The notes: generated by a model not told the origin, from the letters alone. A stretch of DNA of 64,000 nt from a virus (IMGVR_UViG_3300028832_000097:106978-170977); one strand, 5' to 3'; positions 31,135 to 48,615 are shown, counted from the stretch's first letter. Translations and numbers: made by a program.

Positions 31135-32085
31135 CTATTGTTCAATGTACTGCTGAATATCTTGAATTACATTTTTGATAGAAGTGCGTTCGGAAGTTCT
31201 ATTGCCAGTATAAGTTGTAGTACCTCCGCCTTCATCTGTATGTACAACTAATTCATAATCAATAGGCTCTTCGCTATCAGGGAAGAGTGTTAGGTGTTCA
31301 ACTTCACTCCACTGTCTTCCGTTACGGTCCCAATGTGCCCCGCTAGTACGCTTTCCAAAATGTACCGGAATATCATTATTGATAAAATACATGAGAAGCT
31401 GTTTAGGTGCCCAGCAAGATTTTTCCTCAAAAGTGAACAATCCCCTAGAATCTGGTAAATCGTAATTCTTTTCAAACTCCGTACGTGTGTCAGCATACTG
31501 TGGATCTGCAGCTACTCGTCTACTTATTGCATTAAATGTATCTTCTTTATCGTTTGTCCAGCTCCACCCAAAACTATTATTCTTCTTACATGCAGTTGAT
31601 AATTCTCCCCAATCAAGTAACTTGGAAGCGTAGTAGTAAGTAAGCAACTTATTTTCATCTTTGATAGCTTTTACATTTACTTTGCTACCTCTATCACGAT
31701 AATCTTTGAGTTTATCCAACACAGCTTTTGAAGGCTTGTAGAGGTCAATATCGATTTCACCTAATTCAGCATTGTAGTCATCTTCAGCTTGCTTAGATTC
31801 TGCTTCGTAAGCTTCTTTAAACTTATTCATGTCGATATAGAAATATAAATCACCATGTTTAGGCTCTATGTACTTACCGCCAGCACTGCGAATTCTAGAT
31901 TTAAGATCTGCAATTTCTTCAGGATCTAACGTATAGTACGTTCTTGTAATATAAAAATTATGTTTGCCAGATGAAGTGTTCACCAGTTTATACTTATCGG
32001 ACCATCTAGATATGCCGAGCTTACTATATAGTCGATCCATAGGTTGTTCAACATATCGCTTGCTTGCTACAATGTATCTTTTCAT
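31135..32085 (-). CDS. Hypothetical protein with MKRYIVAS leader
   Basis: 316-aa ORF, AGGAGG RBS. Confidence 0.75.
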   Translation of the reverse strand: MKRYIVASKRYVEQPMDRLYSKLGISRWSDKYKLVNTSSGKHNFYITRTYYTLDPEEIADLKSRIRSAGGKYIEPKHGDLYFYIDMNKFKEAYEAESKQAEDDYNAELGEIDIDLYKPSKAVLDKLKDYRDRGSKVNVKAIKDENKLLTYYYASKLLDWGELSTACKKNNSFGWSWTNDKEDTFNAISRRVAADPQYADTRTEFEKNYDLPDSRGLFTFEEKSCWAPKQLLMYFINNDIPVHFGKRTSGAHWDRNGRQWSEVEHLTLFPDSEEPIDYELVVHTDEGGGTTTYTGNRTSERTSIKNVIQDIQQYIEQ

Positions 32086-32098
32086 GAAATAATCCTCC

Positions 32099-32635
32099 TT
32101 ACATATTTACAGGAATGATACGTACCCAAAGTTTATTATCATTATTGTTTGCGCGAACCCAATCACAATAAGCTCGTTGTATCTTCTTAGGTGCATCCCA
32201 GATAGAATCATATTTATCCACGAGACCTAAATCGCGGATCCACATTTTGTAACTAGTTTCAAAATCATCTCCTGCATCGTTCCAGCGTGCATCATCCCAT
32301 TGAAGGATTTCATCGTCATATAATTCATCTTCAAATACAGCGATTTCAATGCTAGGAGCCCACATATCATTGTCCTTACCTTGGATAGATAAGTCAGCTT
32401 CGTCGCTTCTTTGCCATTTATCTACAATGTAATCCTTAGATTCTAATGAATATTTGATCTGATTGATAACATTATCAATAAGTTGATCTGTGATATCTTC
32501 TTTGATGGTTAACAGATATTCTTCTTCATGTGTATATTTTTCAATTCCAAGAATATGGAGATACTTTCTAAGATTGGGAAGTATCACAGTTTTCCACAAT
32601 TTTGTATATCGCTGCCATGTAGGATATATTGCCAT
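32099..32635 (-). CDS. Hypothetical protein
   Basis: ATG 32635 after GGAGG. Confidence 0.65.
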   Translation of the reverse strand: MAIYPTWQRYTKLWKTVILPNLRKYLHILGIEKYTHEEEYLLTIKEDITDQLIDNVINQIKYSLESKDYIVDKWQRSDEADLSIQGKDNDMWAPSIEIAVFEDELYDDEILQWDDARWNDAGDDFETSYKMWIRDLGLVDKYDSIWDAPKKIQRAYCDWVRANNNDNKLWVRIIPVNM

Positions 32636-32651
32636 AGTACTTGCCCCTCCC

Positions 32652-32885
32652 TTAGTTATCAATTTCTGGTGCTAAATATATAGGTAACCGCAGTTTCTTA
32701 ACTGCAGCGATTTCACTAGTTGATAACGCTGTGTATGCACCGACGTATCCAAATTCATACTCCATGTATGCTCGGAATTCATTTTCTGTTCCTTGGATGA
32801 ATATAGGTTTTTTGAACCCGTTTTCTATATAAGTGACCATCCAAACTTCTTCAATCTGATCATTTCTAATTACGTAATTATCCAT
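32652..32885 (-). CDS. Hypothetical protein
   Basis: Start trimmed to ATG 32885 to avoid overlap with the upstream gene. Confidence 0.55.
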   Translation of the reverse strand: MDNYVIRNDQIEEVWMVTYIENGFKKPIFIQGTENEFRAYMEYEFGYVGAYTALSTSEIAAVKKLRLPIYLAPEIDN

Positions 32886-32889
32886 ATTA

Positions 32890-33246
32890 TCACCAAAGAT
32901 CAAATGCATTGGAAACCGCGGTTTCTGCAGTTTCAGGTTCTGCAGCTTCTCTGCCCTCTCCAAGTACATAAACAGTACCTACGTCTATGAATTCATATCC
33001 AAATTCTTCCAATGCATCTTCGAAAGATTCTACACATACATATTGCACAATCTCTTCATAATCGAGTGTTCCCGTATGTGGAATTTCTTGCAGCCAGCCC
33101 TGTTTGTCGGAATAATCTCTATTCACATAATCGTAGATAGCAACAGGTACTAATGTCCAAACTAGATAACTGTCCATATCTTTATGTACGAATCTAGGTT
33201 CCATGCTGAATGAATATAAAACACTTCCATCGCTTATTAGCTTCAT
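32890..33246 (-). CDS. Hypothetical protein
   Basis: ATG 33246 after GGAGG. Confidence 0.6.
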   Translation of the reverse strand: MKLISDGSVLYSFSMEPRFVHKDMDSYLVWTLVPVAIYDYVNRDYSDKQGWLQEIPHTGTLDYEEIVQYVCVESFEDALEEFGYEFIDVGTVYVLGEGREAAEPETAETAVSNAFDLW

Positions 33247-33269
33247 ATTGCCCTCCTTCAATATAGATT

Positions 33270-33686
33270 TTATTTATTTATGATAGGTCTATCCTCATGA
33301 AACTTAACACCGTTGAATGTTTCATTGATATTATGCATTACTTTTGCTAAAGATAATAAAGTATCTTCGTCTAGTTCATCATAAATATGAAGTTTCCATC
33401 CGTCGCGAGTCCATGAAATATCATAATGATTGCCTGATTTAGTTGTATACAGGCTGTAAAATCCTAAAAGTTGTCCGTTATCAGCTACGCCCACTGAGTC
33501 TATATCAGAAAGTTTTAAGTTGCTTCCAGCAAGACACCTGTTAACCATTTTTACTATGTTTTCTAGCGTATTATATGGACGGTTGTATCGACTATAATTA
33601 TCTATGTAACAAGCGCCCTGAGACCTTACCGCATCGTCATTTGCTTTGATGCATTTACTAGGATATTTTGTAAGTTTCTTTATCAT
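33270..33686 (-). CDS. Hypothetical protein with basic leader (MIKKLTKYPSKCIKAN)
   Basis: ORF with AGGAGG RBS. Confidence 0.65.
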   Translation of the reverse strand: MIKKLTKYPSKCIKANDDAVRSQGACYIDNYSRYNRPYNTLENIVKMVNRCLAGSNLKLSDIDSVGVADNGQLLGFYSLYTTKSGNHYDISWTRDGWKLHIYDELDEDTLLSLAKVMHNINETFNGVKFHEDRPIINK

Positions 33687-33803
33687 GTTGCCCTCCTTAT
33701 ATTAGCTGTAACTAAATGTAGAAATTTACATTCGATTATCAGTTTATCGCTTTCTAGATCCACACCCCACATATTGCATCGAGTTGTATAAAACACCTTA
33801 GGT

Positions 33804-33995
33804 TCACACTCTTTCAAAATATATTCTAAATTTGTCCCTGCCTTCTGCATATATTGCAGTTATTGAGGACGATGCAATTTCAGGATCTAATACGGCATCA
33901 TCGCTGTATCGTTCTCCGGTATCTGCATCTATGAATTCAAACATACCTGCAGCTAATTGGTTGAACTCATCTACTGTTAAAATGATTGTGTTCAT
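33804..33995 (-). CDS. Hypothetical protein
   Basis: ORF with AGGAG RBS. Confidence 0.6.
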   Translation of the reverse strand: MNTIILTVDEFNQLAAGMFEFIDADTGERYSDDAVLDPEIASSSITAIYAEGRDKFRIYFERV

Positions 33996-34004
33996 GAATT
34001 TCTC

Positions 34005-34370
34005 CTATATCCCGTTTTTCAATTTTGTTTTCTTATCGCCAGTTAATTTTGCATATATGAAGTTGTTTCTAATATATTGATGAAAAAAGTGGCCCTTCGA
34101 GGGAGCTGCAACTAATCTGCGATACAATGCAGTAGGTACATCATAGTAGACATATATATCATCTGGACCACCTAAAGCACCTTTGAATTGTATATATAAA
34201 TCCCCATACTGCATCTTAGGGTCTTTTACATTCATAGCATAACTCCACATGTTTGAAGAGCGGACCCTAACCATGTTTTTAGTTATGTCTTTAGAAGAAA
34301 TGGCTGCAGTAATTTTACTGCGATAACTAACTGGTGCAAATGTAACTGATGCGATTTCAGGATATTTCAT
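34005..34370 (-). CDS. KTSC-domain protein
   Basis: SSN...LYIQF...YVYYDVP...YxxLVAAPSKGHFF...IRNNF. Confidence 0.85.
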   Translation of the reverse strand: MKYPEIASVTFAPVSYRSKITAAISSKDITKNMVRVRSSNMWSYAMNVKDPKMQYGDLYIQFKGALGGPDDIYVYYDVPTALYRRLVAAPSKGHFFHQYIRNNFIYAKLTGDKKTKLKNGI

Positions 34371-34371
34371 A

Positions 34372-34668
34372 TTATTGATTTCTTAATGTTGTTTTAGCAT
34401 CGCTGATTGCTTGCATTGTTTCTTCAGAAGTAGAGGAAAGTAAATAATCATAAATGTACTCCAGACCTTCCCAATCACGTCCAAGCTGTTCTGCACATTC
34501 AAGAACACCAAAAAGCCATGCAGACTTCTTATCATCTATTATTTTAGTTAGTTTACCTAACATCACGAATTCTGATCTATCACCTTTACAATGCTGGATT
34601 GCTTCTACCATGTTAGATATATCGCCATTATTCGGAAATACAGAGGCGGATGTGATTACTCGTTTCAT
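34372..34668 (-). CDS. Hypothetical protein with MKRVITSAS leader
   Basis: ORF; CACCTT motif at 34706-34711. Confidence 0.65.
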   Translation of the reverse strand: MKRVITSASVFPNNGDISNMVEAIQHCKGDRSEFVMLGKLTKIIDDKKSAWLFGVLECAEQLGRDWEGLEYIYDYLLSSTSEETMQAISDAKTTLRNQ

Positions 34669-34713
34669 AGTGTGCTCCTTGTATCATGATTATACAGATA
34701 TATATAAGGTGAA

Positions 34714-35088
34714 TCAATCTTTACACTCCCACGGAAACACAATCCACTTATCAGATTTTTCAGAAACGTAGAAATCAGGTTTTACTAATGCGCCTTCTTT
34801 GTAATACATTGTAGCAATTATGTAGTCAGGTTTGGAGTGTCCTGAGGCATTATTTGCATAATGAAGCAATGTTTCTCCAGAATCACAGATATCATCTATT
34901 ATGATACAGCCGCTGCAAGGCGCTGCAAGTAAGGGCACATTCATTCTATGGGAAAGTATTACAGCAAATATGAGCCCGCCACGAGCAGGCCCGTATACAC
35001 CGGTAATATCAGCATCTTTATATTTTCTTGCAACTTGATCACAAAATGATTCTACTTCACTCCACTGAACATATTCTTTGTTGGCCAT
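34714..35088 (-). CDS. Type I phosphoribosyltransferase (xanthine-guanine PRT-like)
   Basis: ARGGLIFA, PRPP-binding IIIDDICDSGETL, C-terminal WIVFPWE. Confidence 0.85.
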   Translation of the reverse strand: MANKEYVQWSEVESFCDQVARKYKDADITGVYGPARGGLIFAVILSHRMNVPLLAAPCSGCIIIDDICDSGETLLHYANNASGHSKPDYIIATMYYKEGALVKPDFYVSEKSDKWIVFPWECKD

Positions 35089-35232
35089 GTTTAATCCTCC
35101 GAATCTATTGATTTTGCAATAACAATGTTGCCGTTACAATCAGTAACGATTTTATAATAATCTTGACAGAAAACCAATGAACTTTAGTTCATTGGATGAA
35201 TGTCGATATAATGCCACCGTCTAAACGGTGGC

Positions 35233-35646
35233 TTATTTCTTGCCTTGATTTTCAATGTAGTATTGTAGAGTTTGTGAACTTACTTCTCCTATAGATGCTA
35301 TAAAGTACCCATCTGACCAAAAGGTGCGTTCGTGCCAGAAGCATTTAGATAGATATGGTTCATACTTCTCCCAAATATGATACGTTGTGTACTGCTTCAA
35401 ACCTCTAACAAAATCCGACAAATTGATATTCGGAGTTGTTTCTATCATATAGTGAATATGGTCTTTATCAGTTTCCATATACTTAATTTTGACATCGTGC
35501 TTGTTAGCAATTTCTTCTGACAGTTTCTTAATGTCTGAAGATACATTGTTACCCCCAAGCAATTTTCTTCTGTACTTGCATACAAAAATTAAGTGATATC
35601 TTAATAGAAATTTACATCTGTTTTTAGAAACATACTCATTACTCAT
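35233..35646 (-). CDS. tnpA: IS200/IS605 Y1 (HUH) transposase
   Basis: YHLIFVCKYRR, DHIH (HUH), FWSDGYF, YIENQ. Confidence 0.95.
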   Translation of the reverse strand: MSNEYVSKNRCKFLLRYHLIFVCKYRRKLLGGNNVSSDIKKLSEEIANKHDVKIKYMETDKDHIHYMIETTPNINLSDFVRGLKQYTTYHIWEKYEPYLSKCFWHERTFWSDGYFIASIGEVSSQTLQYYIENQGKK

Positions 35647-35749
35647 ATTTCTATATAAGGTTGTAATTAGTTTAGATTTAATATATAATTAGGATATATT
35701 AAATAACCTTATATGTATGTGAGGTTAAATCTATAGAAAGGAGAATGAT

Positions 35750-37015
35750 ATGTCAACTTATGCAGTACAAAGTAATGTCATTCGGGGATTATCCAAGAAG
35801 CAGTATGCCTTGCTTAAAGAAATGTGTCGATATTCCAATAGTCTGTATAATGTTGCTCTTTACAATATAAGACAACATTATTTTGATACTAAGATGTTTT
35901 TGACCTATGAAAGTAATTACCACGAATGTAAGACCAATGAAAGTTACAAGTTACTGCAAGCAGGGGTGGCTCAACAAACTATGAAAGTTGTTGACCGCAG
36001 TTTTAAGTCATTTTTCAACTTGTTGAAAAAGTGTAAGGTTGGAGATTATCGCTACCATGATGTAAAGATACCTCATTATAGAAAATCAGGTGGATTATTT
36101 AATTTAGTGCTTTCTACTAATGCGATTATTATTCGTGGTGATTATCTGATGCTCCCTATGAGTAGAGAGTTTAGGGCATTACATCCTGAGGTTAAAGAGA
36201 TTGCAATACCGTTTCCTAAAAGGCTTTCAGATAAAACTATTAAAGAAGTTCGTATCTTGCCTTGCAGTAATGGTAGAGTATTCAAAATTCAGTATGCGTA
36301 TGAAGTAGCAGAAGAACCGATAAATCTGAATAAGGACAATGTAATTTCAATTGACATCGGAATAGATAATTTGGCAACTTGCGTTCCCACCATTGGGACA
36401 CCATTCATTATGGATGGTCGTAAACTTAAATCAATCAATCACCAGTGGAATAAAGAAATAGCAAGACTTCGCTCAATATCTATGAAACAGGGTTTGAAAA
36501 CTACTAATCGTATTCAGAAAATCACCGCTAAACGCAACAATCAAGTGAATGACTGCATCAAGAAGACTGCACGATATATTATTGACTATTGTATAACAAA
36601 TGATATAGGTTCGCTTGTTGTCGGGTATAATGCTGATTTCAAGAGAAATTCCAATATTGGTAAAGTCAATAACCAGAATTTCGTTCAGATACCTCTTGGA
36701 GATTTGAGAAATCAGTTAAGTTTTCTTTGTTGGAAGTATGGTATTGACTACATCGAACAAGAAGAAGCCTATACATCTAAAAGCAGTTTCCTTGACAAAG
36801 ATGTATTGCCTAAATACAAGCCTGAACAACCATATAAAGGCAAGTTTAGCGGTAAAAGAATATGCCGTGGATTGTATTGTTCTGCAAATGGTACAATCGT
36901 TAATGCGGATGTAAACGGTGCGGCAAACATAATGAGAAAATGTAAGCAGAATGTCGATTTCGACAAACTGTGTCTAGGGCTTTTGGCGAGTCCTGCAAGA
37001 ATAAGGCTCTCGTAG
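35750..37015 (+). CDS. tnpB: TnpB RNA-guided endonuclease
   Basis: RuvC-I SIDIG; VVG with shifted Glu in EEAYTSK; RuvC-III NADVNGA. Confidence 0.95.
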   Translation: MSTYAVQSNVIRGLSKKQYALLKEMCRYSNSLYNVALYNIRQHYFDTKMFLTYESNYHECKTNESYKLLQAGVAQQTMKVVDRSFKSFFNLLKKCKVGDYRYHDVKIPHYRKSGGLFNLVLSTNAIIIRGDYLMLPMSREFRALHPEVKEIAIPFPKRLSDKTIKEVRILPCSNGRVFKIQYAYEVAEEPINLNKDNVISIDIGIDNLATCVPTIGTPFIMDGRKLKSINHQWNKEIARLRSISMKQGLKTTNRIQKITAKRNNQVNDCIKKTARYIIDYCITNDIGSLVVGYNADFKRNSNIGKVNNQNFVQIPLGDLRNQLSFLCWKYGIDYIEQEEAYTSKSSFLDKDVLPKYKPEQPYKGKFSGKRICRGLYCSANGTIVNADVNGAANIMRKCKQNVDFDKLCLGLLASPARIRLS

Positions 37016-37041
37016 CAAACTTCTTGCGAATCCCATTGGCT

Positions 37042-37986
37042 TTAGCCGATGGGTACGTCAATATCTCGGATTGCTAATCTTAAGTATTCCGAATCTCGTC
37101 CAATGTAGTTTGCAGCTTTTGAAATTGAAGCAAATGTTTGTACAGCACCGTCTGCACATGTTATCCTACATCTATGCGCATAACAGCGCTTTTTCTTACA
37201 TTTTGCAATATATTCTACATATGTTCTATTGTCTCTATCATATCTATAGAATTTGTGTGCAACATCTAATATAGGCCAATTATTCATTATGCAATTTGAC
37301 ACATACCCTTGTGGCATATTTAAGAATCTATCACATTGCCAAAAACTTGCAAACTCGTGTTCTACATCATCTACAACAAGCTTGCATCGATTTTTATTTG
37401 CAGGATCTGGTCTGATATATTTGATCCAGTTCTTATCAACCTCTGTGTATACTTCAACAACTTCACCACTTGTAGATGTAATTCTATATCCACGACTGAT
37501 ACATTCTGAAACATAATCTTCATATCGCCCTAAGTAATGACTTGCGACCTTTTGACTATTGAATATATGTTCACCAGAGGTGTCAAGTATTTTAACTCGG
37601 ACACCGTGACCTTCCTGATTGTTATCAAAAGCAGACATCCAGCAAAGATTCTCAATTCTGTTATCTAGTTTGTTGTGATTCTTATGATGCACAGTAGGAT
37701 TGCACATATGTGCAGGAGGATCTCCAGCAAATTTAAGCAATACAATGATATGTACCCTTATATTCAATGTTTTACCATCTTTTCGAGGTAACCCAACTTC
37801 GTAGTATCCATCATCGGTAATGTGCGGTTTAAGTATATGATTATTTAGGTTTCTGATAGTACCACAATTAGATATTTCATATGTTGAATTTAGCTGTACA
37901 TTTCGAATTTCTTGAAATGAAACCCAAAGTTCTTTGGGTTGATCTATAGGACATGAAATAGATATTAGAGGTCTGGTGCGTTTCAT
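37042..37986 (-). CDS. HNH endonuclease, C-terminally truncated by the IS605 insertion
   Basis: YEISNCG, RVH, VHHKNHNKLDNRIENLCW; last residues come from the IS end; native tail lies at 35091-35167. Confidence 0.85.
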   Translation of the reverse strand: MKRTRPLISISCPIDQPKELWVSFQEIRNVQLNSTYEISNCGTIRNLNNHILKPHITDDGYYEVGLPRKDGKTLNIRVHIIVLLKFAGDPPAHMCNPTVHHKNHNKLDNRIENLCWMSAFDNNQEGHGVRVKILDTSGEHIFNSQKVASHYLGRYEDYVSECISRGYRITSTSGEVVEVYTEVDKNWIKYIRPDPANKNRCKLVVDDVEHEFASFWQCDRFLNMPQGYVSNCIMNNWPILDVAHKFYRYDRDNRTYVEYIAKCKKKRCYAHRCRITCADGAVQTFASISKAANYIGRDSEYLRLAIRDIDVPIG

Positions 37987-39449
37987 ACAACAATCTTATT
38001 ATAATAATTTGACCAAGGCATCATCTGTTCTATTTTGTACGCAACTCTATATACATCTTCGTCAAAGTATCGTCTACCTACTACCTGAACGCCAATAGGA
38101 AGATTATTAGAACCAAGTCCTGCCGGAACTGATGCTGCAGGGTTGCCGGTCATATTCTGTAACCAGGTCTGGCAGAAGCCAATAAGTTGTTCTACACTTG
38201 CTCCCTCAATGTTTTCAGGTCCCTTAGTATCTTCCTCAGAATTAAGTACAGGCATACAGGATGTGACAGGTGAAATAATAATATCGTGATCTTTGAGCAC
38301 TGCAAGATTTGCATCAAGAATATCTGTCCTGATTTCATGGAACTTACGATAGTCGAGCATCGTAGATGCAAATGCTTTATTTGTCCATTCAATAAACTGA
38401 TCGGGTAAATCTTCTGCATGGTCTCCCATTAAATCAAACCCGGTAGTTTCTTTCATGATGTGCAAGTCTAATGCTCCATCAACACTAATGCTTCTGAGCC
38501 AAGCTTCAACCATTTCTTCAAGAGAATGCTTGAAAGTAAAATGTACAGGTTCAACAATAGCTCCAGCAGTTTCGAGCACTGTTGCAACTTTGTCTACAGC
38601 TGCTTTAATCTCAGGATCAACAAAAATAAACAAGTCATAGTCATATGTTAGCCCAATTCGCATTCCTTTTATACTTTCTACCTGGGTGTTGAAGAAATTC
38701 TTATGTGGAAGCGGTACAGAAATCGGATCCATTGGGTCGTATGCCATCATGTTTTCCATAATTATTGCTGAATCTGTAACAGTTCTTGCCGTTGGGCCGT
38801 CACAGCAATAAGGATGTGTAGCTGTCCAAGCATCAGGTCTGCATACGCTAGGTACTATTCCTGCGGAAGGTTTGAAACCAAATGTACTGCACCATGCGGA
38901 TGGCACGCGTGTACTTCCTCCAGCGTCGCCGCAGCTAGCCAGTGGGACCATTCGGCTTCCGACAGCCGAGCAACTTCCGCCAGAACTTCCACCAGAATTA
39001 TATGCAAGATTAAACGGATTATGTGTATTACCATACATCTTATTGTAGGTTGTTCCTCTAAAACCAAATGAAGGTGCATTTGTTTTGCCTATTGCAATGC
39101 AATCAAGTTTCCTTGCAGCTTGCCAAAAGGTGCAATCAGCATCATCTACAGTTATAAATGATTTTACTCCACCATGTGTAGCTGTCCATCCCTTCTTTGC
39201 AGGTAAGAAATCTTTAAGTGCAACAGGAACTCCGGCAAATAATCCTACAGATTCACCTTTCATAATCCTATCTTCTAATGCTTTTGCTTCTTCTAGTGCT
39301 TCGTCAATCTTTGTGTATGTAAACGCATTGAGTGATTTGTTTTTAGTTTCAATCAACTTCGCAAAGTAGTTTATCACCTCCACCGGAGAGATTTCTTTAC
39401 TCCTAACTAATTTACCTAATTCTAACGCTGAAAGTGTTTCTAGTTGCAT
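37983..39449 (-). CDS. Amidase-signature (GatA-like) enzyme
   Basis: GVPVALKD, GGSSGGS, DAGGSTRVPSA (Lys/Ser/Ser triad), GLxxxxLPIGVQ; start moved to ATG 39449 after GGAG. Confidence 0.9.
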   Translation of the reverse strand: MQLETLSALELGKLVRSKEISPVEVINYFAKLIETKNKSLNAFTYTKIDEALEEAKALEDRIMKGESVGLFAGVPVALKDFLPAKKGWTATHGGVKSFITVDDADCTFWQAARKLDCIAIGKTNAPSFGFRGTTYNKMYGNTHNPFNLAYNSGGSSGGSCSAVGSRMVPLASCGDAGGSTRVPSAWCSTFGFKPSAGIVPSVCRPDAWTATHPYCCDGPTARTVTDSAIIMENMMAYDPMDPISVPLPHKNFFNTQVESIKGMRIGLTYDYDLFIFVDPEIKAAVDKVATVLETAGAIVEPVHFTFKHSLEEMVEAWLRSISVDGALDLHIMKETTGFDLMGDHAEDLPDQFIEWTNKAFASTMLDYRKFHEIRTDILDANLAVLKDHDIIISPVTSCMPVLNSEEDTKGPENIEGASVEQLIGFCQTWLQNMTGNPAASVPAGLGSNNLPIGVQVVGRRYFDEDVYRVAYKIEQMMPWSNYYNKIVV

Positions 39450-39480
39450 TTGTGAGTTCTCCTTGCTACATATGAAAATT

Positions 39481-39858
39481 TTATTTGAATTCTCCACGTG
39501 ACTTAAGCGCATTAAACAAATCAAAATCGTCAAATGATCCGTCTGTATCCATGTAATGCTTAAGCAATAAATCATAATTTCTAGCTACATACTCAATACC
39601 TTCTTCAAATGAATCAATCTCGCTCTGCTTAAATTTAGATAACCAATTTTTAGGTGCGAGCACTACAGGATGATCAGAAATGCTTACAGAAATTGATGCA
39701 TCACCAATATCAAGTTTAACTCGAGGAAGTTTATCAGGCTTGTTTCGTAAGCAACCTTGGCCGTCGGACCAGATATTAACTCTAAGTCCTGTTCGTTTCT
39801 TATTTATGTTAGCCATCGCCATTATAGTATCATTGGTTGTTCTGATATATTTTTTCAT
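39481..39858 (-). CDS. Hypothetical protein with MKKYIR leader
   Basis: ORF, AGGAG RBS; core domain begins MANINKKRTGL. Confidence 0.7.
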   Translation of the reverse strand: MKKYIRTTNDTIMAMANINKKRTGLRVNIWSDGQGCLRNKPDKLPRVKLDIGDASISVSISDHPVVLAPKNWLSKFKQSEIDSFEEGIEYVARNYDLLLKHYMDTDGSFDDFDLFNALKSRGEFK

Positions 39859-40044: not shown

Positions 40045-40063
40045 TGTAGTAGAAGTACAAGTA

Positions 40064-40798: not shown

Positions 40799-40871
40799 AT
40801 ATGTTATCTCGCCACACAATAATAGTGCAACTGTTGTAGCTGCACTATGTATAACGATTTTGTATCTTTAA

Positions 40872-41369
40872 TTAGAATTCGTCGCTCCAACCATGACCTA
40901 TATCCCAATGGATATCTTTCTCAAATTCTGTGCCTTTGGGAAGGTTGAATTCATCTAGAATGTACTGCCTAACATGAGGATAATCGTCTATCCAGTCACC
41001 TGTGAATACAATAAATCCCTTATTTTTGAATTCAAATACTCTTCCGCGAGGTACAAGTGTATGATCTCCTTGAAATCTTATATCTTTTCCTCTAAAGTAT
41101 TCTTTCTGCCATATGTTCTTATGAAGGTGCTTATCTGTTCTAATATCGGTATTCCATTGATTTGAATGATACCAATTGAGATCTGTAGCTACTGTACTTT
41201 TGATCCCAAATAATTCGTCTGCTTCGGGATCATACCAAAACATTGCAACTTCTGGATCATCTTTATATTTATCGTTTTCAAACATCACATCCATAGCCGA
41301 AGATGCTTCGGATGTTCGAGCAGATCTTTCTTGTGCTGCTTCTTCAGGAGATTTGATGTATCGTTTCAT
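40872..41369 (-). CDS. Hypothetical protein with MKRYIKS leader
   Basis: ORF track. Confidence 0.7.
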   Translation of the reverse strand: MKRYIKSPEEAAQERSARTSEASSAMDVMFENDKYKDDPEVAMFWYDPEADELFGIKSTVATDLNWYHSNQWNTDIRTDKHLHKNIWQKEYFRGKDIRFQGDHTLVPRGRVFEFKNKGFIVFTGDWIDDYPHVRQYILDEFNLPKGTEFEKDIHWDIGHGWSDEF

Positions 41370-41436
41370 GATAATAGATCCTACTTAGCTCAATTACATA
41401 TGCTATAACGATCATATCAAGATAAACACTACTCAA

Positions 41437-41709
41437 TCAATACCACATTTCTCGGAGTTTATCATACACATATTCTTTGAACTCTTGAGTATCAACTTTA
41501 TCCTGGTATTCCGGCCACTCTTCTGGTTGTATTTCGTTGATTACATCATAGACGTGTTCCCACGCGATGTCATATATATCTTCTTCAGAACAATCGTACC
41601 TATAATTCTCTATGGTGCAACGTAGTTCATCTGCGATAAGCAAATCAAGGCGCGGTGATTCAATTCGTGATGCAGTCATAACTGGTACTTTTCTAAATTG
41701 TCTTTTCAT
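41437..41709 (-). CDS. Hypothetical acidic protein with basic leader MKRQFRKVPVMTAS
   Basis: ORF track. Confidence 0.65.
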   Translation of the reverse strand: MKRQFRKVPVMTASRIESPRLDLLIADELRCTIENYRYDCSEEDIYDIAWEHVYDVINEIQPEEWPEYQDKVDTQEFKEYVYDKLREMWY

Positions 41710-41724
41710 AATACAAAAATCCTT

Positions 41725-42045
41725 TCACATCAAATTATTCTCTTTCAGTATATTTATAATATCTGGAGTAACATCAATCAATTGATTATCTGTGTAGACT
41801 CCTAAGAAATCTGCAGGAAATTTACTCCCAGTACCAATGATATGATATATTACATCATATCCATTATCATCTAGCACTTCTGCAAATTCAGGTTTTACTT
41901 TATGGATACCATATACTGTATATTCTTTTTCATATCCAGGAATTAATTCTTTTTCTACTGTGCTATCTTCATAATCAAAGAATCCTGGAAAGATTTCATC
42001 TTCCGCGTCATCATAGTATTTTTCAATTATTTCCCATGCGTCCAT
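41725..42045 (-). CDS. Hypothetical acidic protein
   Basis: ORF track, AGGAG RBS. Confidence 0.65.
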   Translation of the reverse strand: MDAWEIIEKYYDDAEDEIFPGFFDYEDSTVEKELIPGYEKEYTVYGIHKVKPEFAEVLDDNGYDVIYHIIGTGSKFPADFLGVYTDNQLIDVTPDIINILKENNLM

Positions 42046-42046
42046 A

Positions 42047-42352
42047 TTATATGCTCCTTGAATCTATTTCAGACATTAGATTATCAATGAATTCTTCAGT
42101 GTCAATTGTCATCGCATCTTCTTCAGTAGCTACTTCTACAATGTAGATGCTATCAAGAAATTTGAATTTGCGCTCGTTAGTTTCAAATGGGCTTTCAAAT
42201 ATCTCTTGTGCTTGTTCGCAGGCGATTTTATTAGCAGCCCTTTGGCTATTGGCACCACCTAATAGACAATCTTTACCATCAGGGCTTATCCAATGTACTT
42301 GATACGTAGTTTTCCAAGGAGTAACTCCAGAAGATCTAATGTAGCGTTTCAT
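42047..42352 (-). CDS. Hypothetical protein with MKRYIRSS leader
   Basis: ORF; AACCTT at 42390-42395. Confidence 0.7.
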   Translation of the reverse strand: MKRYIRSSGVTPWKTTYQVHWISPDGKDCLLGGANSQRAANKIACEQAQEIFESPFETNERKFKFLDSIYIVEVATEEDAMTIDTEEFIDNLMSEIDSRSI

Positions 42353-42389
42353 ATTATCACCTTTTCGAAATAATCTTATGTAAGTATTA

Positions 42390-42395
42390 AAGGTT
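42390..42395 (-). promoter_or_regulatory. Phage promoter motif class 2 ([A/C]ACCTT), probably late
   Basis: Recurs intergenically at 1445, 1945, 2203, 25225, 34706, 35657, 45432, 52834 and 55573 (minus) and 35705 (plus), including upstream of structural genes. Confidence 0.65.
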
Positions 42396-42405
42396 CAATA
42401 TCACA

Positions 42406-42678
42406 TTATTCTTCCGATTCATACGTAAACACAATGGATTCTACAGCTGCACGTTTCTGCGTCAATTCTGCAATCTCTTCATCAATTTCTTTGAGCATTT
42501 GAGCTTTCGCTTTTTCTACATACTTAGATACTCTACTCTTAGGGCAATAATACACTATTGCATTTTCACCCTCTTTGCAACCATACAGCATTTGAATAGC
42601 ATAATCAGGGCTGATATCCTTAACTGTATACTTTCCGGTTTCAAAAACCCAAAGCTCAACCATATCTTGTTTACTCAT
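42406..42678 (-). CDS. Hypothetical protein
   Basis: ORF track. Confidence 0.6.
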   Translation of the reverse strand: MSKQDMVELWVFETGKYTVKDISPDYAIQMLYGCKEGENAIVYYCPKSRVSKYVEKAKAQMLKEIDEEIAELTQKRAAVESIVFTYESEE

Positions 42679-42692
42679 ATAATCACCCCCAT

Positions 42693-43346
42693 TTATTCAG
42701 GAAAAGCAAGTTTGACCATATCTTCTGCATAAACATAAATATCAGTCTGCCCGTCAGCACCTTTAGTAACTCTTTGATGAAGATGATACTTAACACCTCG
42801 TCTTGTACGACCATACGGTTTAAGCTCTCTTGGTTCGTACTTACAATCATGCAAGTCGCTAGAACGAGATAGTCCATGAACACGCTGTATTTTAATGTTT
42901 CGGGACACACTGCGAATCTTACCAGATTTGCTTACTTGATATAGGTGTTCATAGCCCTTAATAGGCAACGGTCGCCATTCTTCTATATCAGGATTATCAT
43001 CAATGTATGTATAAGGTGCCCATTCTAAATTATCTGCTTTGTTATCGAACGGACATTTGTTTTTATGTACAACACATTCAAAATTATTAGGATTAGGTAT
43101 CCAACTTTCTGCAACTAATTGAGCAACTTTATATGTAGCTGTTTTACCATCTCGAGACAATGGTATGTATGCTACATTAGCTTGTACAAATGATTTACGA
43201 ATTCTCTCGGAAAGTTTTCGAGTGTGCAATTCACCTCGCTGAGTGTATTCAATAAGCTGCTCAGAACGCTTGATTCTGCCTAAGTTACTTACTTCGTAAC
43301 TACCTTCATAACCTTTTACCGGGCGCCATTCTTCTTTCTGTTTCAT
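42693..43346 (-). CDS. NUMOD4/HNH endonuclease-like protein
   Basis: EEWRPVKGYEGSYEVSNLGRIK; HKNxxPFDNKADNLEW; second NUMOD4. Confidence 0.85.
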   Translation of the reverse strand: MKQKEEWRPVKGYEGSYEVSNLGRIKRSEQLIEYTQRGELHTRKLSERIRKSFVQANVAYIPLSRDGKTATYKVAQLVAESWIPNPNNFECVVHKNKCPFDNKADNLEWAPYTYIDDNPDIEEWRPLPIKGYEHLYQVSKSGKIRSVSRNIKIQRVHGLSRSSDLHDCKYEPRELKPYGRTRRGVKYHLHQRVTKGADGQTDIYVYAEDMVKLAFPE

Positions 43347-43394
43347 AATACAACCTCCGTGTGATTGATATACTTAAATAACGATCATAAAAAT

Positions 43395-43421
43395 AAGTAG
43401 CACCATAATCAGGTGCTACTT
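43395..43421 (-). terminator. Intrinsic terminator after yhhQ paralog 2
   Basis: AAGTAGCACC/GGTGCTACTT stem followed by ATTTTT on the minus strand. Confidence 0.75.
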
Positions 43422-43448
43422 AACTAGTTGTTTGATACTCAACGTAAA

Positions 43449-44210
43449 TTAAGTGTTGATGCTATACTTTGTAAGATAGTCACAACCTACATTGTCTCTC
43501 TTCCAATTCTTGGACATTTTGTAGCCAATAGGGCTAAATACAGCTTCAATACCAAGTTCAAGAAGCATCATCATAAATGAGCAAACTAATACCTGCTTGA
43601 TGGACCAACCGAAGAAGATGTAAGATACAAATAGTGCAAATACAATATTGTCTACAAACTGCCCAGCTGCTGTAGACAAGAAGCTTCTAATTGCAAATCC
43701 ACCAAAGTTGTCCTTCTTATCAACAGCCTTGCCAATGAACTTGTTTACGATAGAGTTTACAAGTCCTCCAAGATACATTGCGGCTGCAGAGCCAAGTACT
43801 ATGAACCAAGAAGACGAGAATGTTGCGTCTACGCTTGCATTGATTGCATCTGCTACTGCAGGATCTGTTGCGGAATAACTAGCTGCCCATACGCCGGGAA
43901 TCTTGCAGATAAGCATATATGCAAGTCCTGCAAGTAAATTAGCTACCATTGCTACAGTATTTAAGATAGTAGCAGCCCTGGCACCAAATCTTTTACAAAC
44001 TGCATCCATACATAGGAAACTAACCCAACTTACAAAAATACCTGCAGTACTTGCAAGCCATGGAAGGTTAAAGATGGATTTGTTTGCGAGAAGATTCATT
44101 GACACAACAGACAAAATAAAGAATGCAGTTACTAGACCTGGAATTGCGCGCATTGTGTCTTTTACTTCTGTGACCAAAGAAGGCTTGGTCATGGTTTGTT
44201 CTGAACTCAT
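43449..44210 (-). CDS. yhhQ: VUT/YhhQ-family queuosine-precursor transporter (paralog 2)
   Basis: NLLANK, DAVCKRFG, LGSAAA, RSFLSTAAGQFVDN. Confidence 0.85.
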   Translation of the reverse strand: MSSEQTMTKPSLVTEVKDTMRAIPGLVTAFFILSVVSMNLLANKSIFNLPWLASTAGIFVSWVSFLCMDAVCKRFGARAATILNTVAMVANLLAGLAYMLICKIPGVWAASYSATDPAVADAINASVDATFSSSWFIVLGSAAAMYLGGLVNSIVNKFIGKAVDKKDNFGGFAIRSFLSTAAGQFVDNIVFALFVSYIFFGWSIKQVLVCSFMMMLLELGIEAVFSPIGYKMSKNWKRDNVGCDYLTKYSINT

Positions 44211-44218
44211 AATAAAGT

Positions 44219-44280
44219 TCCTCCTGTTATTTTTATTTTATAACGCCGAGGCTGTCAAGGAAATACAAAACTCGGCGGTT
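44219..44280 (-). promoter_or_regulatory. preQ1-I-like riboswitch candidate
   Basis: P1 CGCCGAG/CTCGGCG; loop starts with U, ends with C and contains anti-SD TTTCCT; A-rich tail then AGGAGG; lies between the promoter motif and yhhQ. Confidence 0.45.
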
Positions 44281-44306
44281 ATATTTTATATTATAACGAT
44301 TTTAAG

Positions 44307-45221
44307 TCATTTGGACTCAAAATAATGTGAGAAAATATAAGTTCTTCCCCACCTACCTAACCCATTGATATAACTATCAAAGGTTATACCGAATATATTA
44401 TCTAATGAATAAAATTCTGATTCCAATAGTTTAATATCTCTGAAATTATCACTAAATATGTCAACATACATGGATTCGTAAGTATCTCCATATTCATCTA
44501 CTTCTGTTTCTATGTATGCATCATTTATTGACAGACCGTAATTTTGAATGAGACGAAGTATGTACTGCTCCTCCCTATCAGTTATTGCAGCGGTATGTTG
44601 AGGAGAATTGAAATCTAAAGAGCCAAATATAGATTTATGGTTTTCAGATTCTAAATATGAAATTATCTGCATGAATTCATCAAACGACAGTGCAGATTCA
44701 CAACTAGAATTGTTATAGTAATCACTAATGTAGGATTCAGAATATTGCTTGCGTTTATCACCTTTAAGCTGGTGAAATTTAGGATCTGAAATTAAATTAA
44801 GATAACATTCTTCTACATATTCAATTTGTTCAGCGCTAAATTTATTTACAACTACATTAAAATCATTGAATTTTTGCTTAGTTGTATATTTAGGTGCAGA
44901 AACTCTATTCAAATTTTTATGATCTGTGATATTAAATAATTTTAAATCAAGGTCAATATCTTGACCATCGACTGTGTAAAGAAGTATTATATCACCTGTT
45001 TTTCTACCATCAAGGTGAATATGTTCAATTTTCTTTGTGTTCTTAAGCGGACGTGCATATTCTTTCTCATACATGTCAACCCCTAGAATAATCTCGTCAA
45101 TGATTCTAAATAGTTTAGCTACTTCTGAAGATAGATTATCATGTTTGAGTTGTGCTAAACCATCGCAAAATTGAGAGGTGCATGTTATATTGTATCTAGT
45201 ATAATCAATAGAATTACTCAA
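44307..45221 (-). CDS. Protein with N-terminal RelE/YafQ-like domain and long C-terminal extension
   Basis: TSQF..L..L...PLK...EHIHL...GDIILLY...LFNITDH matches the RelE/YafQ fold pattern. Confidence 0.55.
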   Translation of the reverse strand: MSNSIDYTRYNITCTSQFCDGLAQLKHDNLSSEVAKLFRIIDEIILGVDMYEKEYARPLKNTKKIEHIHLDGRKTGDIILLYTVDGQDIDLDLKLFNITDHKNLNRVSAPKYTTKQKFNDFNVVVNKFSAEQIEYVEECYLNLISDPKFHQLKGDKRKQYSESYISDYYNNSSCESALSFDEFMQIISYLESENHKSIFGSLDFNSPQHTAAITDREEQYILRLIQNYGLSINDAYIETEVDEYGDTYESMYVDIFSDNFRDIKLLESEFYSLDNIFGITFDSYINGLGRWGRTYIFSHYFESK

Positions 45222-45384
45222 AATCGCGCATCTCCTTAAGTATATTCATGAATTCATCTGCAGGGATAGTTTTATTAGGCACATCTCCAAACCTATCGTG
45301 CCATCTCTGGAAAAAATCAGATTTAGCTCGAGGTTCTTGTGAAATGTATCTATCTTTATTATTGATCTCAATCCGTCTTTTCAT
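45214..45384 (-). CDS. 56-aa putative antitoxin-like peptide
   Basis: Not in track. MKRRIEINNK...PADEFMNILKEMRDFE; its stop overlaps the TTG start of the RelE-like gene; AACCTT upstream. Confidence 0.55.
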   Translation of the reverse strand: MKRRIEINNKDRYISQEPRAKSDFFQRWHDRFGDVPNKTIPADEFMNILKEMRDFE

Positions 45385-45435
45385 ATTATCTGCTTCCTAA
45401 CATATTGTTGTATTCAGCTATGGATTCATACAAGG

Positions 45436-46386
45436 TTATACCTGTACCGACCTCATAGCCTGGATCTGCTTAAACATTGCATCTACAAGCGGATGACCTA
45501 CAATGATCTGGCTCCATCGTGTTTCCTTGTAATTTTCTGTTGTACGAACAGGAATTGAATGATCTGCGTAATCCGTTATTGCCATCATTGCACCAAAAGC
45601 AGTACCGCGATACTTAAGAATATCAGGTGCTATCATACAAGCGAATACGTCGGATTTCAACTGTGCTGCTCGAGACTTCTTGAGGTCTGAATCATCTTCC
45701 TTTACAGGATAGAGAATATCAAGAATAGACTCTACAGCTTCATCTGAAAGCTTCATATCTGCAAGAATTTCAGCTTCCTGCTTGAGCGCTTCTGTATATT
45801 CTGAAATCATCCCAAGAGTATATCTTGCTTCATTGAGCTTTGACTGCATGTCGCCTACATGACGAGTTGACCAAGAACGTTTAGCTGTATTAAGTGCAAG
45901 ATTAAGTGTATTGTTGCAAACAACCCTTACAGGAGTCATGCAAACTCTGATTGAACCTTGGCCATCATGTCTGTTGTTGAAGCAGACATACGGTTCAAGG
46001 TCGTCATCGAGAATCTTGTCTTTAGGCATCTTACCGAGAAGCCATATATTCTTACCGCCTTCGAGCGATCCTGCAGATTCGTATGTAAGTCCCTCATCAA
46101 GCAAACTGTCTACAAACTGGAATGCATCTCTATTCTGAACGATGGTGTATCTGTTAGTTACTACTCCAAGTACCTTGTTATCTGTGCTACGAGTGTTAGC
46201 GAAGTAATTAGGTACTGGAATTGTCTGATTATTCTGCTGAATGAATACAGGTTTTGCTTCTACATCCCAATTAAGTCCGGCTTCCTGAATTGCAACTTCG
46301 GCTGTAGGTGCATTCTCAAGCACCTTTCCAATACCGTGCCAAGCGGGCTCTCTTACTACAAAACAATTTTCAACTAATGCGGGCAT
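45436..46386 (-). CDS. DUF932 family protein (paralog 2)
   Basis: REPAWHGIG, AGLNWDV, YTIVQNRDAF, TPVRVVCNNTL. Confidence 0.9.
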   Translation of the reverse strand: MPALVENCFVVREPAWHGIGKVLENAPTAEVAIQEAGLNWDVEAKPVFIQQNNQTIPVPNYFANTRSTDNKVLGVVTNRYTIVQNRDAFQFVDSLLDEGLTYESAGSLEGGKNIWLLGKMPKDKILDDDLEPYVCFNNRHDGQGSIRVCMTPVRVVCNNTLNLALNTAKRSWSTRHVGDMQSKLNEARYTLGMISEYTEALKQEAEILADMKLSDEAVESILDILYPVKEDDSDLKKSRAAQLKSDVFACMIAPDILKYRGTAFGAMMAITDYADHSIPVRTTENYKETRWSQIIVGHPLVDAMFKQIQAMRSVQV

Positions 46387-46483
46387 TTTTTAAATCCTCC
46401 TTGATTGTGTATTGATAGGTTGAATTATATCTACAGTTACTATAACGATTCATAAAAATTTAATCAAGGAAGAATAATATCAA

Positions 46484-47040
46484 TTAAATTAAGAAAATTT
46501 GATTAGTATGGAAGCATACAAATTCAGACGCATTAGCTGCTCCAGATACATTACTGCGATACTTGCCTTGCTTGTAGGAAAATTTAACCCCATCATATCC
46601 TGCGTCTTTTACCGCACTGTGAATTCTTCTATAGGTGTTTCATCTTCTAGATATGCAAATGGGGCTAATCTCCCATTATATACGCGAGGGCTGATACCTA
46701 ATGTGAGTAATGTATATATTGAATCTGGGTTAGAATATATAAATGGATTGGTGATATTTAAGTATGCACGTTTCACGTTACTTCCATAACTTTGAGATAG
46801 CTTGAGAGAGTTGGAGAAATATATTCCTTTGCCAAACCATCCAATGTTGCCAGAATTCTGTGAAATAAACTCATCCTTGAATTCATTGAATTCGTTTGGT
46901 GTTCCGTGATAACATACAATAAGACGTCCATCTCGTGTGCGTATTTTAGAAGATTTTAGTGCAATCGCAATGTCAGAAGGTACAACGTTACCTTCATTAT
47001 CATATTCAATATGTGCAGATGAGTTAATGTATCTTTTCAT
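46484..47040 (-). pseudogene. ADP-ribosyltransferase-like (polyvalent-protein ART, H-Y-E type) with a 1-nt frameshift at ~46616
   Basis: YHGT...GWFGKGIYFS...YG...YLNITNP in one frame; AGYDGV...SEFVCFHTNQI continues in a shifted frame to TAA 46484. Confidence 0.75.
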
Positions 47041-47044
47041 ACGC

Positions 47045-47188
47045 TTACTTTTTCTTTGGTTCCTTCCACCCGCTAAGACGAATAGCTACCCCTTGCTTTT
47101 CAGCCTTCTGCTTAGCACCTTTACCGTAGTATACTTTACCAGTTTTACCCCATTGATATCCGCCACCAGGTGTTTTATGTACAGGCAT
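47045..47188 (-). CDS. 47-aa basic phage protein
   Basis: Not in track. MPVHKTPGGGYQWGKTGKVYYGKGAKQKAEKQGVAIRLSGWKEPKKK, GGAGG RBS. Confidence 0.7.
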   Translation of the reverse strand: MPVHKTPGGGYQWGKTGKVYYGKGAKQKAEKQGVAIRLSGWKEPKKK

Positions 47189-47192
47189 TGTG

Positions 47193-47762
47193 TTAATCCT
47201 CCAAATTAATATCTTCTAGTTTAGAATATGTTTCGGCAATTTTATCAAGTTTGCTCATCACAGCAAATTCTGCATGTGCATAGTCCTTAAAGTACTTTTG
47301 ATTAACTACAATACCTCTAGGAATAACTTTAACATATCCTGGATAGGTTTCACGGATTTCTTGTAACACCGATTGCTCGTGTTTCCATCGAGCTGATTCA
47401 GAATGTTTGGTCATGTTGTGCGTAGAAATTCGAAAATCTACTATTATTTTTCCTGCCAATTCTCCGTAGGCATTTCTAACCCCTATATAAAAATATAATG
47501 ACTGCGGTATATCTGTACCAGGAAAAACAGTTCCAGGTTTTTCTGCTAGTAGAATCAACGATTTATTAGAAGCAATAGTAGATTTCACCATACCAATGAA
47601 ATCTAACCAATCATTTAATGCTTGCTGATCGTCCTCAAAATCAGTTTGAATCAATTTAGAAGACTGTATAGTACCTGCAGATTCTACTAAGAAATCTATA
47701 GCTAACGTTTCTATAGTAGGCAGGTCTGCAATGAATCTAGGCATTCTAGTATATTGTCTCAT
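47193..47762 (-). CDS. Hypothetical protein
   Basis: ATG 47762 after GGAGG. Confidence 0.65.
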   Translation of the reverse strand: MRQYTRMPRFIADLPTIETLAIDFLVESAGTIQSSKLIQTDFEDDQQALNDWLDFIGMVKSTIASNKSLILLAEKPGTVFPGTDIPQSLYFYIGVRNAYGELAGKIIVDFRISTHNMTKHSESARWKHEQSVLQEIRETYPGYVKVIPRGIVVNQKYFKDYAHAEFAVMSKLDKIAETYSKLEDINLED

Positions 47763-47822
47763 TAATGTTACCTCCGTCATACACATATAAACGAATCAAA
47801 TATGTGAGATGACGTACATAAG

Positions 47823-48068
47823 TTAAATAGCACCATCAGATTCATAGAAATCTAACTCATCCAAAACAACTTCAGGTTCATTTTCAAACCTGTATTGAGC
47901 TTCTTCTAACAATTGTTCCTTGACACCCTCATCGTCGATGTGACCATAATGGTCTAGTATCCCATATGGATCAAATTCCCACATGAAATTTACAAGCTGT
48001 TCAAGAATGTCATCTGTAAGTACTTGAGTTCTGATTGCATCTCTCAGTTCTTCAATGTCGAATCCCAT
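47823..48068 (-). CDS. Hypothetical acidic protein
   Basis: ORF track. Confidence 0.6.
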   Translation of the reverse strand: MGFDIEELRDAIRTQVLTDDILEQLVNFMWEFDPYGILDHYGHIDDEGVKEQLLEEAQYRFENEPEVVLDELDFYESDGAI

Positions 48069-48072
48069 TATA

Positions 48073-48318
48073 TCACTCTCCTACATAATCACGCAGATAG
48101 TCTAATGCGCTGAGAATATCGTCCATCTCAGATTCAAGCTCTTCAATCTGCTCCTGTATCTTTTCAATTCTAGCTTCTTCAGCCTCAGTTAAATCTCTAT
48201 CATGGTCGCCGGCATTATCTTCAATCTGTGCTTCTTTTTCTTCCAAGATCTCAATCTTGTCATTTATAGTTTCGCAAATATCATCAAGTCTATCTACAAT
48301 TGCGTTAAGTTTTATCAT
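48073..48318 (-). CDS. Highly acidic coiled-coil protein
   Basis: D/E-rich heptad pattern. Confidence 0.65.
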   Translation of the reverse strand: MIKLNAIVDRLDDICETINDKIEILEEKEAQIEDNAGDHDRDLTEAEEARIEKIQEQIEELESEMDDILSALDYLRDYVGE

Positions 48319-48339
48319 GATTTAACCTCCCTTACACAT

Positions 48340-48615
48340 TTAAAGTACTAGGTAAGTGCTATCGTCTATTTCACGAGCCATTCTATTATGACACATACCC
48401 TCTAAGCATCCTAATAAATCATAGAAGTCATCAATACCAAGTTGTTTAGCTTCATAAATCAACCCTCCGGGTTTATCCTCAGGCCAATCAGCTCGTTTAC
48501 TTATTGTGTGTCCAGATAGATTATCAGAAACTAGCTGGCCGTATTTCTCAAATTCATCTTTTCCGAAGTACCATCCGTTTCTGAAAGTTAACCCTGCAGT
48601 AATTACTCGTTTCAT
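48340..48615 (-). CDS. Hypothetical protein with MKRVITAG leader
   Basis: ORF, GGAGG RBS. Confidence 0.7.
   Translation of the reverse strand: MKRVITAGLTFRNGWYFGKDEFEKYGQLVSDNLSGHTISKRADWPEDKPGGLIYEAKQLGIDDFYDLLGCLEGMCHNRMAREIDDSTYLVL

Follow-up and report, generated by a model that had tools for sequence, protein, structure and literature searches.

Leaders on the genes of the window and genome

The window analysed here, a stretch of 64,000 nucleotides (IMGVR_UViG_3300028832_000097:106978-170977), is the terminal part of one 170,977-bp virus record that CheckV rates at 100% completeness, with a guanine-plus-cytosine (GC) content of 36.9% and nearly all of its genes on the minus strand. The products of several of its genes begin with almost the same few residues, and an earlier note on this DNA had proposed that the encoded N-terminal leader is a portable tag for capsid targeting and processing, with I-x-[AS] as the cut site. 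We thus investigated this leader in the window, in the 260 called genes that serve for all genome-wide counts, and in related phages. A megablast search with 12 kb of the window against GenBank phages gave no match, and the capsid protein is just 26-27% identical to those of the nearest cultured phages. The clade sample consisted of 52 relatives from IMG/VR, with capsid proteins 57-73% identical to that of this phage.

Eight genes of the window, all on the minus strand, begin with the strict form of the leader, and each start reported earlier was recovered at its position. They are the genes for MKRYILAM (2208..2705, 165 residues, no family match), MKRYIVAS (31135..32085, 316 residues, for which an AlphaFold2 model was made), MKRVITSA (34372..34668, 98 residues), MKKYIRTT (39481..39858, 125 residues), MKRYIKSP (40872..41369, 165 residues), MKRYIRSS (42047..42352, 101 residues), MKRYINSS (46499..47040, an ADP-ribosyltransferase (ART) with a frame break near 46618) and MKRVITAG (48340..48615, 91 residues). 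Two starts that the earlier note had listed as looser versions, MIKKLTKYPSKCIKAN at 33686 and MKRQFRKVPVMTAS at 41709, turned out to be true members of a second, longer leader class. The first belongs to a gene at 33270..33686 (138 residues, leader MIKKLTKYPSKC-IKAN) and the second to a gene at 41437..41709 (90 residues, variant leader MKRQFRKVP-VMTA-S), both on the minus strand. A third long-leader gene, at 47193..47762 (minus strand, 189 residues, variant leader MRQYTRMPR-FIAD, MRQYTRMPRFIAD), was missing from the first list and is a paralog of the long-leader gene at genome position 57295. The KTSC gene at 34005..34370 (minus strand) is a plausible candidate member, since EIAS and KITAA lie in an N-terminal extension of about 50 residues ahead of the Pfam KTSC domain (E 3.6e-12, residues 57-104); its start codon is uncertain, with alternative starts available. 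Two further looser candidates, MKRRIE at 45384 and MAKVVILGS at 756, do not match the motif, and their membership is unsupported. The observed tag is real, and the first listing was an underestimate.

In the whole genome, the short leader M-K-[RK]-[YV]-I-x-[ASTC]-[small] opens 29 genes, and the long leader, in which 0-7 residues separate M-K-x-(x)-F-T-x-x-P from [IV]-x-[A/S/C]-[S/A], opens another 24. The tagged genes thus number 53 of 260 (20%), amounting to about 8,000 residues, with 11 of them in the window. Conservation covers positions 1-8 of the short leaders, which are random from position 9 on, and extends to codons 12-18 in the long ones. When the leaders were removed, the 53 bodies fell into 49 BLASTP components, the only paralogs being four LRV-repeat proteins and one pair. 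Strict N-terminal matches numbered 27. The residue frequencies at each position predict 0.13 if taken from untagged genes, and 1.2 if tagged genes are counted as well. Furthermore, the eight-residue pattern was absent from 53,151 internal residues and from 350 opposite-strand open stretches. A chance origin of the tag is excluded.

The shared start might instead reflect a nucleotide-level optimum for translation initiation, with A/T-rich early codons, or the expansion of one paralog family. Indeed, MK- starts and A-rich second codons are frequent in low-GC genomes, and the four LRV-repeat genes with long leaders are paralogs. However, the leader Arg is drawn from two unrelated codon families (CGA 13, AGA 10, also AGG and CGC), and the Lys, Tyr, Ile and all other leader positions vary synonymously as well, indicating that selection acts on the tag peptide. 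The span of the conservation, to codon 8 or to codons 12-18, and the 49 unrelated body families argue likewise, as do the absence of the tag from replication genes, the recurrence of the same peptide motif in the capsid protein and scaffold, and the different leaders that other clades put on the same bodies (see below). We therefore regard this explanation as very improbable and rejected it on the basis of the synonymous variation and the 49 body families. A Sec, Tat or lipoprotein signal peptide was also rejected, since the short leaders have 8 charged residues (as in MKRYIKAS) and the long leaders are polar, while a signal peptide would need a hydrophobic stretch of some 10 residues or more ahead of its cut site.

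Four of five complete relatives have 17, 5, 4 and 20 copies of the MKRYI DNA pattern, every one on the coding strand, as compared with 0-1 occurrences of reversed-pattern controls; the fifth complete relative has MKKVI-type variants instead. A literature search for the leader strings found no mention of them.

The leader motif in the capsid protein and the head protease

The major capsid protein matches Pfam Gp23 (E 2.7e-15), and the capsid profile of the clade aligns with T4 gp23 (probability 95%) from residue 80 only, so that residues 1-79 constitute an N-terminal extension. This extension is fast-evolving in the 52 relatives except for repeated units of the forms [KR][KR]-P-[IV]-x-[AS]-[SG], S-I-T-[AS]-G and [IV]-M-A-[AS], and it contains the segment [IV]-[TM]-[AG]-A-T-N-T-x-N-I, which is invariant across the relatives. 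The motif [IV]-x-[A/S]-[small] occurs 4.25 times per capsid extension, against 1.09 in shuffles (36 distinct relatives), and 10.1 times per C-terminal tail of the protease, against 3.1 in shuffles controlled for composition, so that the enrichment is 3-4 fold. As read from the sequences, K-R-Y-I-K-A-S of the short leader and R-R-P-I-M-A-S of the capsid protein represent one extended motif. The motif of the tag is identical to one that is enriched and conserved in the expected head-maturation substrates.

The sole head protease is a protein of 491 residues, in which about 165 N-terminal residues of Peptidase_S77 (the T4 gp21 family) are followed by a coiled-coil tail of about 325 residues. Against a Pfam cut-off of 27 bits the S77 domain scored 31.3, and a scan of the genome detected it in a single copy, at 36.4 bits; no Prp or S78 protease was found in the genome. 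An hhalign comparison with T4 gp21 gave a probability of 92.5%, in which LGHPED (His) corresponds to LNHPPR and GISVRGAG (Ser) to GVSSRGLG. When the capsid protein and the protease were compared with PDB sequences by phmmer, only noise was returned; with S77 as its sole Pfam match and no PDB sequence match, the protease does not fall in the herpesvirus protease family.

Conserved motif columns in the protease alignment include I161-A-A-A at the domain boundary (36/39) and V451-T-G-S about 40 residues from the C-terminus (32/39), and further conserved sites lie at the N-terminus (S-V-K-A-A-D type), at I176-C-A-A and at V396-T-A-A. At the domain boundary, F-T-E-I-A-A↓A of the clade (the arrow marks the bond cut or, in this clade, predicted to be cut) aligns with K-E-I-T-E↓S of T4 gp21, A-L-T-E↓S of G013, a phage described below, and A-L-N-E↓A of a second genome, G007. 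This junction alignment thus places I/L at P3 throughout, with P1 being Glu in T4, G013 and G007 and Ala in this clade.

Leaders, cargo families and expression context across lineages

We then compared the leaders with those of homologs outside the clade. A HMMER search with a full-length ART homolog against 1.84 billion representative proteins found the out-of-clade domain placed centrally within polyvalent proteins 1,000-7,000 residues long; since the alignments begin at query residue 10-30, the leader lies outside the ART domain. Stand-alone ART homologs elsewhere start with MKFKLVE, MKFRLVE, MRFRLCE or MRFNIRE, and one that is 64% identical to the ART of the window starts with MKFRLQE. On one contig of that lineage, three adjacent genes by a T4-type portal gene start with M[KR]FKL[QV]E.

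A degenerate DNA pattern scan located a long contig of this MKFKL.E lineage, G013, which is a complete phage of 123.5 kb and carries M[KQ]F[KR]L[IV]E on three genes, namely those for ART, a homolog of the 427-residue LRR_5 protein (a leucine-rich repeat (LRR) protein) of the present phage, and a third protein. The LRR_5 homologs share 31% identity (E 9e-44), with the alignment starting after the leaders (residues 17/19). The G013 capsid protein, 26% identical to that of this phage, has L-L-E, L-S-E and F-I-N-E↓A in its N-terminus and no I-x-A/S, and the G013 protease/scaffold tail contains [LI]xE at 0.041 per residue versus I-x-A/S at 0.003, a ratio that is reversed in the present phage. Likewise, the capsid extension of this phage has I-x-A/S at 0.05 per residue and no [LI]xE, as compared with about 0.06 [LI]xE per residue in the gp23 propeptide and gp22 of T4. 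The 316-residue protein behaves in the same manner: about 40 close homologs keep MK[RKIL][YVMWL][IVL]x[ASGC], and the most distant ones start with the L-x-E leaders MKNQWKFNNLLRE, MNKIWKYNNLLRE or MNFKFNRKPLKE. Neither this genome nor 1,259 genes of its relatives contain an L-x-E leader. By comparison of the encoded N-termini, three cargo families carry a leader that matches the head-maturation motif of the resident phage. The check on homologs outside the clade, suggested by the earlier note, thus found them either embedded in giant polyvalent proteins or with a leader ending in L-x-E. This covariation of the leader ending with the capsid/scaffold motif, as observed in the aligned sequences, is the strongest test run and the main new result, and since the two switch together, it ties the tag to the head protease.

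The same comparison bears on the idea that the leader is a handle for another partner, such as a chaperone, a modifying enzyme or a host protease like Prp, with a merely secondary resemblance to the capsid protein and scaffold. Prp removes the leader of ribosomal protein L27 and is exploited by Staphylococcus phage 80alpha, and L27-type Prp sites have aromatic residues before the small pair. Prp is encoded by low-GC hosts, and the control genomes did match in our Prp search. However, the residue before the small pair in the present leaders is K, R, T or N, in contrast to the aromatic residues of the L27 type, and the change of the leader ending to L-x-E coincides exactly with that of the capsid propeptide and scaffold. 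Nor was any enzyme gene seen to co-vary with the tag in a search that was not exhaustive. A phage-encoded Prp was rejected because its gene is absent from the genome, and a handle for another partner appears quite unlikely overall.

The majority of the tagged proteins match neither a Pfam nor a PHROG family. The exceptions comprise the ART at 46499..47040, which matches Pfam ART-PolyVal (E 1.8e-14) and bears out its earlier description as ART-like, LRV/HEAT-repeat proteins and a BspA-type LRR protein, with the KTSC protein as a candidate. The AlphaFold2 model of the 316-residue protein has a mean predicted local distance difference test (pLDDT) score of 90, and its sole segment below 50 is residues 1-7, which is exactly the stretch predicted for removal. 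A Foldseek search of this model against PDB gave no fold match (best template modelling (TM) score about 0.19); with about 45 metagenome homologs, the protein represents a well-folded orphan family.

These bodies also bear on whether the tagged proteins are delivered at all. The tag might be read by the head-assembly machinery on proteins that are core or scaffold accessories, or that are cut and then expelled or degraded, so that it times removal and does not mark injected effectors. The motif is indeed common to the scaffold tail, which T4 degrades and expels (PMC9026906), and some tagged proteins are rich in coiled coil, for example a 323-residue protein starting with MKIYIKSA. However, the 49 unrelated body families, including a polyvalent-type ART and LRR/HEAT binders, are effector-like and not scaffold-like, and the same cargo families shift between phage clades and are re-tagged. 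We consider such a role unlikely.

Several observations concern individual cargo proteins. In the ART gene, residues 1-141 lie in one frame and the last 45 or so, beyond the break near 46618, in another; these last residues are 82% identical to intact 186-residue homologs, including the conserved EFVCF segment. The frame change might reflect a programmed shift, decay into a pseudogene, or an error in sequencing or assembly. With the break read through, the ART is a stand-alone protein of about 186 residues and not a multi-domain polyvalent protein, which would have 2-15 conflict domains. A long-leader LRV-repeat protein at genome positions 35581-36534 (L002:15581-16534, minus strand) has two modules, and the start of the second, V-V-T-C-S-I-Q-P-L-E-D-L, mirrors the leader junction of the first, Y-I-R-C-A-V-Q-S-L-S-E-L, so that an internal cut site in a two-part polyprotein could be envisaged.

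A further locus, L063 (IMGVR_UViG_3300028886_000052), was rejected as a stand-alone ART locus, since it actually encodes a giant polyvalent protein. Its frame at 24457-31059 is open for more than 2,000 codons and contains two tandem ART domains, with junctions of the form N-P-T-S-S-D-N-I-N-E↓D-L-Q-E, and the same NPT.S.NINE tail closes stand-alone homologs. In Glu-type phages, the modules of polyvalent proteins may accordingly be separated by I-N-E protease sites.

Two strand-specific promoter-like motifs, ATCGTTA-N7-9-TATAAT and [AC]ACCTT-N-TATA, partition the genome. The nearest upstream motif is of the ATCGTTA type for 31/31 replication genes and of the [AC]ACCTT type for 44/44 structural genes, and probably the former are early/middle and the latter late promoters of a phage-specific transcription programme. 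The tagged genes divide 34:19 in favour of the structural type, and the remaining genes divide 36:67; this bias is an enrichment, not a rule. In the window, as previously described, [A/C]ACCTT precedes the starts at 34668, 42352 and 45384, and ATCGTTA precedes those at 41369 and 48615. Specifically, the late-type hexamer CACCTT at 34706..34711 (minus strand), followed by N11 and TATAAT, lies 43 nt upstream of the 34668 start, AACCTT is found at 42390-42395, and ATCGTTA at 41406-41412 and 48638-48644. The tag is missing from all replication and tail-fibre genes of the window.

Other features lie outside the tagged set. A gene for a homing-endonuclease-like protein of 636 residues at genome positions 74998-76908 (L004:14998-16908, minus strand) sits behind its own ATCGTTA motif, inserted between a tagged-gene array and the capsid gene, and an HNH-containing helicase is encoded at genome positions 63169-65571. 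Six tRNA predictions cluster at 1634-3650 of the window (minus strand), including Leu-tag, Lys-ttt, Leu-taa, Pro-tgg and Gln-ttg; the sixth, a 97-nt call at 2076-2172 with the four-base anticodon ctcg, was unassignable by ARAGORN.

A proposed prohead-targeting tag and known systems

We consider it likely, from the sequence comparisons, that the leader is a prohead-targeting propeptide of the type of the T4 capsid-targeting sequence (CTS), suited to a head protease with another cut site, and that about fifty unrelated proteins are probably packaged in the phage capsid. All computational tests run agree with the portable targeting and processing tag of the earlier note, including its I-x-[AS] cut site. 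The minimal tag would be M-K-R-Y-I-x-[A/S]-[S/A], with basic residues at P6/P5, a hydrophobic one at P4, I/V at P3 and a small residue at P1. It would dock the new protein onto the assembling prohead core, made of the protease-scaffold fusion that contains the sole S77 protease. The activated protease would then cut after Ala/Ser, taking 7 residues off the short leaders and about 11-18 off the long ones, and the same enzyme would trim the N-extension of about 70-80 residues from the gp23-type capsid protein, free itself from its own scaffold tail and fragment that tail. The released proteins, 53 species with about 8,000 residues, would remain in the head and exit with the DNA. Of these steps, we infer the docking, the exact scissile bond, the retention in the head and the ejection.

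Several points weigh against this proposal. The scissile bond after Ala/Ser was placed from the T4 alignment and the herpesvirus A↓S sites, and P1' and even P1 vary in the tag (T, C, G; F once, in homologs). The core motif, short and loose as it is, has a background frequency of about 0.009 per residue in the proteome, so that individual internal sites are not callable. In the capsid protein, the candidate maturation sites are V-T-A↓A (residue 70) and I-M-A↓R (residue 79). Furthermore, 19 of the 53 tagged genes lie behind ATCGTTA, otherwise the mark of replication genes, and are not all obviously late, and 53 cargo species are far more than the handful of tagged proteins in T4.

We lean somewhat towards a broader scenario in which a rumen/gut phage lineage with T4-type heads switched its gp21-family protease from Glu to Ala/Ser (the assemblin rule), an 8-residue tag loads about 50 proteins per genome, and cargo genes (ART, LRR and orphans) move between lineages and get re-tagged. 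If true, the tag would provide a sequence-only list of the injected proteome of uncultured phages, and would label DNA-delivered proteins, a class that is rich in anti-defence and host-takeover functions and nearly unrecognisable by homology. The gp21-family proteases would not be bound to Glu at P1, with one lineage sharing the (V/I)-x-A↓S rule of assemblin, and this Ala-type specificity would bear on the common ancestry of capsid maturation in tailed phages and herpesviruses. The re-tagging of cargo would be direct comparative evidence that the tag, and not the body, holds the address, which is the property needed for packaging foreign proteins in phage capsids.

In T4, gp21 has L/I-x-E specificity and removes the 10-residue CTS MKTYQEFIAE from IPII and IPIII, and related propeptides from IPI and Alt (PMC9026906); we found MKTYQEFIAE twice in T4. 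As in the present phage, the T4 tag is short and N-terminal, occurs on unrelated proteins that include an ADP-ribosyltransferase, and ends in the motif cut, or here predicted to be cut, by a gp21-family (S77) protease; this motif recurs in the scaffold and in the propeptide of a gp23-family capsid protein. Both tags begin with M-K-x-Y. However, the motif here is I/V-x-A/S↓small and not L/I-x-E↓, and the predicted cleavage is thus not after Glu. The short tag has 8 residues without the QEF spacer of T4 and is joined by a second, longer leader class, and the protease is fused to the scaffold, with 53 tagged genes (20%) in place of a handful.

The herpesvirus assemblin, too, has a protease domain fused to a C-terminal scaffold, with release and maturational sites in pseudorabies virus of Y-L-Q-A↓T and V-Q-A↓S (PMC4498786), and a homology between this enzyme and gp21-type proteases has been reported (PMC9026906). 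The protease of this phage has the same kind of fusion and is predicted to release itself where its domain meets the scaffold, at a (V/I/L)-x-A↓S/A site; as in assemblin, another conserved site lies some 40 residues before the C-terminal end. In contrast, the phage protease falls by sequence in Pfam S77, and herpesviruses do not place the site as a tag at the N-termini of dozens of cargo proteins. An assemblin-like specificity could be convergence or retained ancestry.

In the giant phages phiKZ and SPN3US, the propeptides of inner-body and ejection proteins are cut by gp21 homologs (PMC9026906, PMC10052503), and, as proposed here, a single diverged protease of the gp21 type processes many proteins inside the head at a three-residue motif, and protein is ejected in large amounts. 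Those proteases still cut after Glu, however, and their propeptides are long, with no uniform N-terminal tag. Finally, polyvalent proteins are predicted to be packaged and delivered with DNA (Iyer et al. 2017, PMC5512222). The ART-PolyVal domain is found in them too, and it is within such proteins that the window ART has its nearest homologs outside the clade, whereas the present phage has separate genes, each with its own tag, and not one giant polypeptide. The concept of such a tag is thus known from the T4 CTS and the phiKZ/SPN3US propeptides; new with respect to the literature searched are the Ala/Ser specificity predicted for an S77 protease, the scale of 20% of genes, the two leader classes and the re-tagging across lineages.

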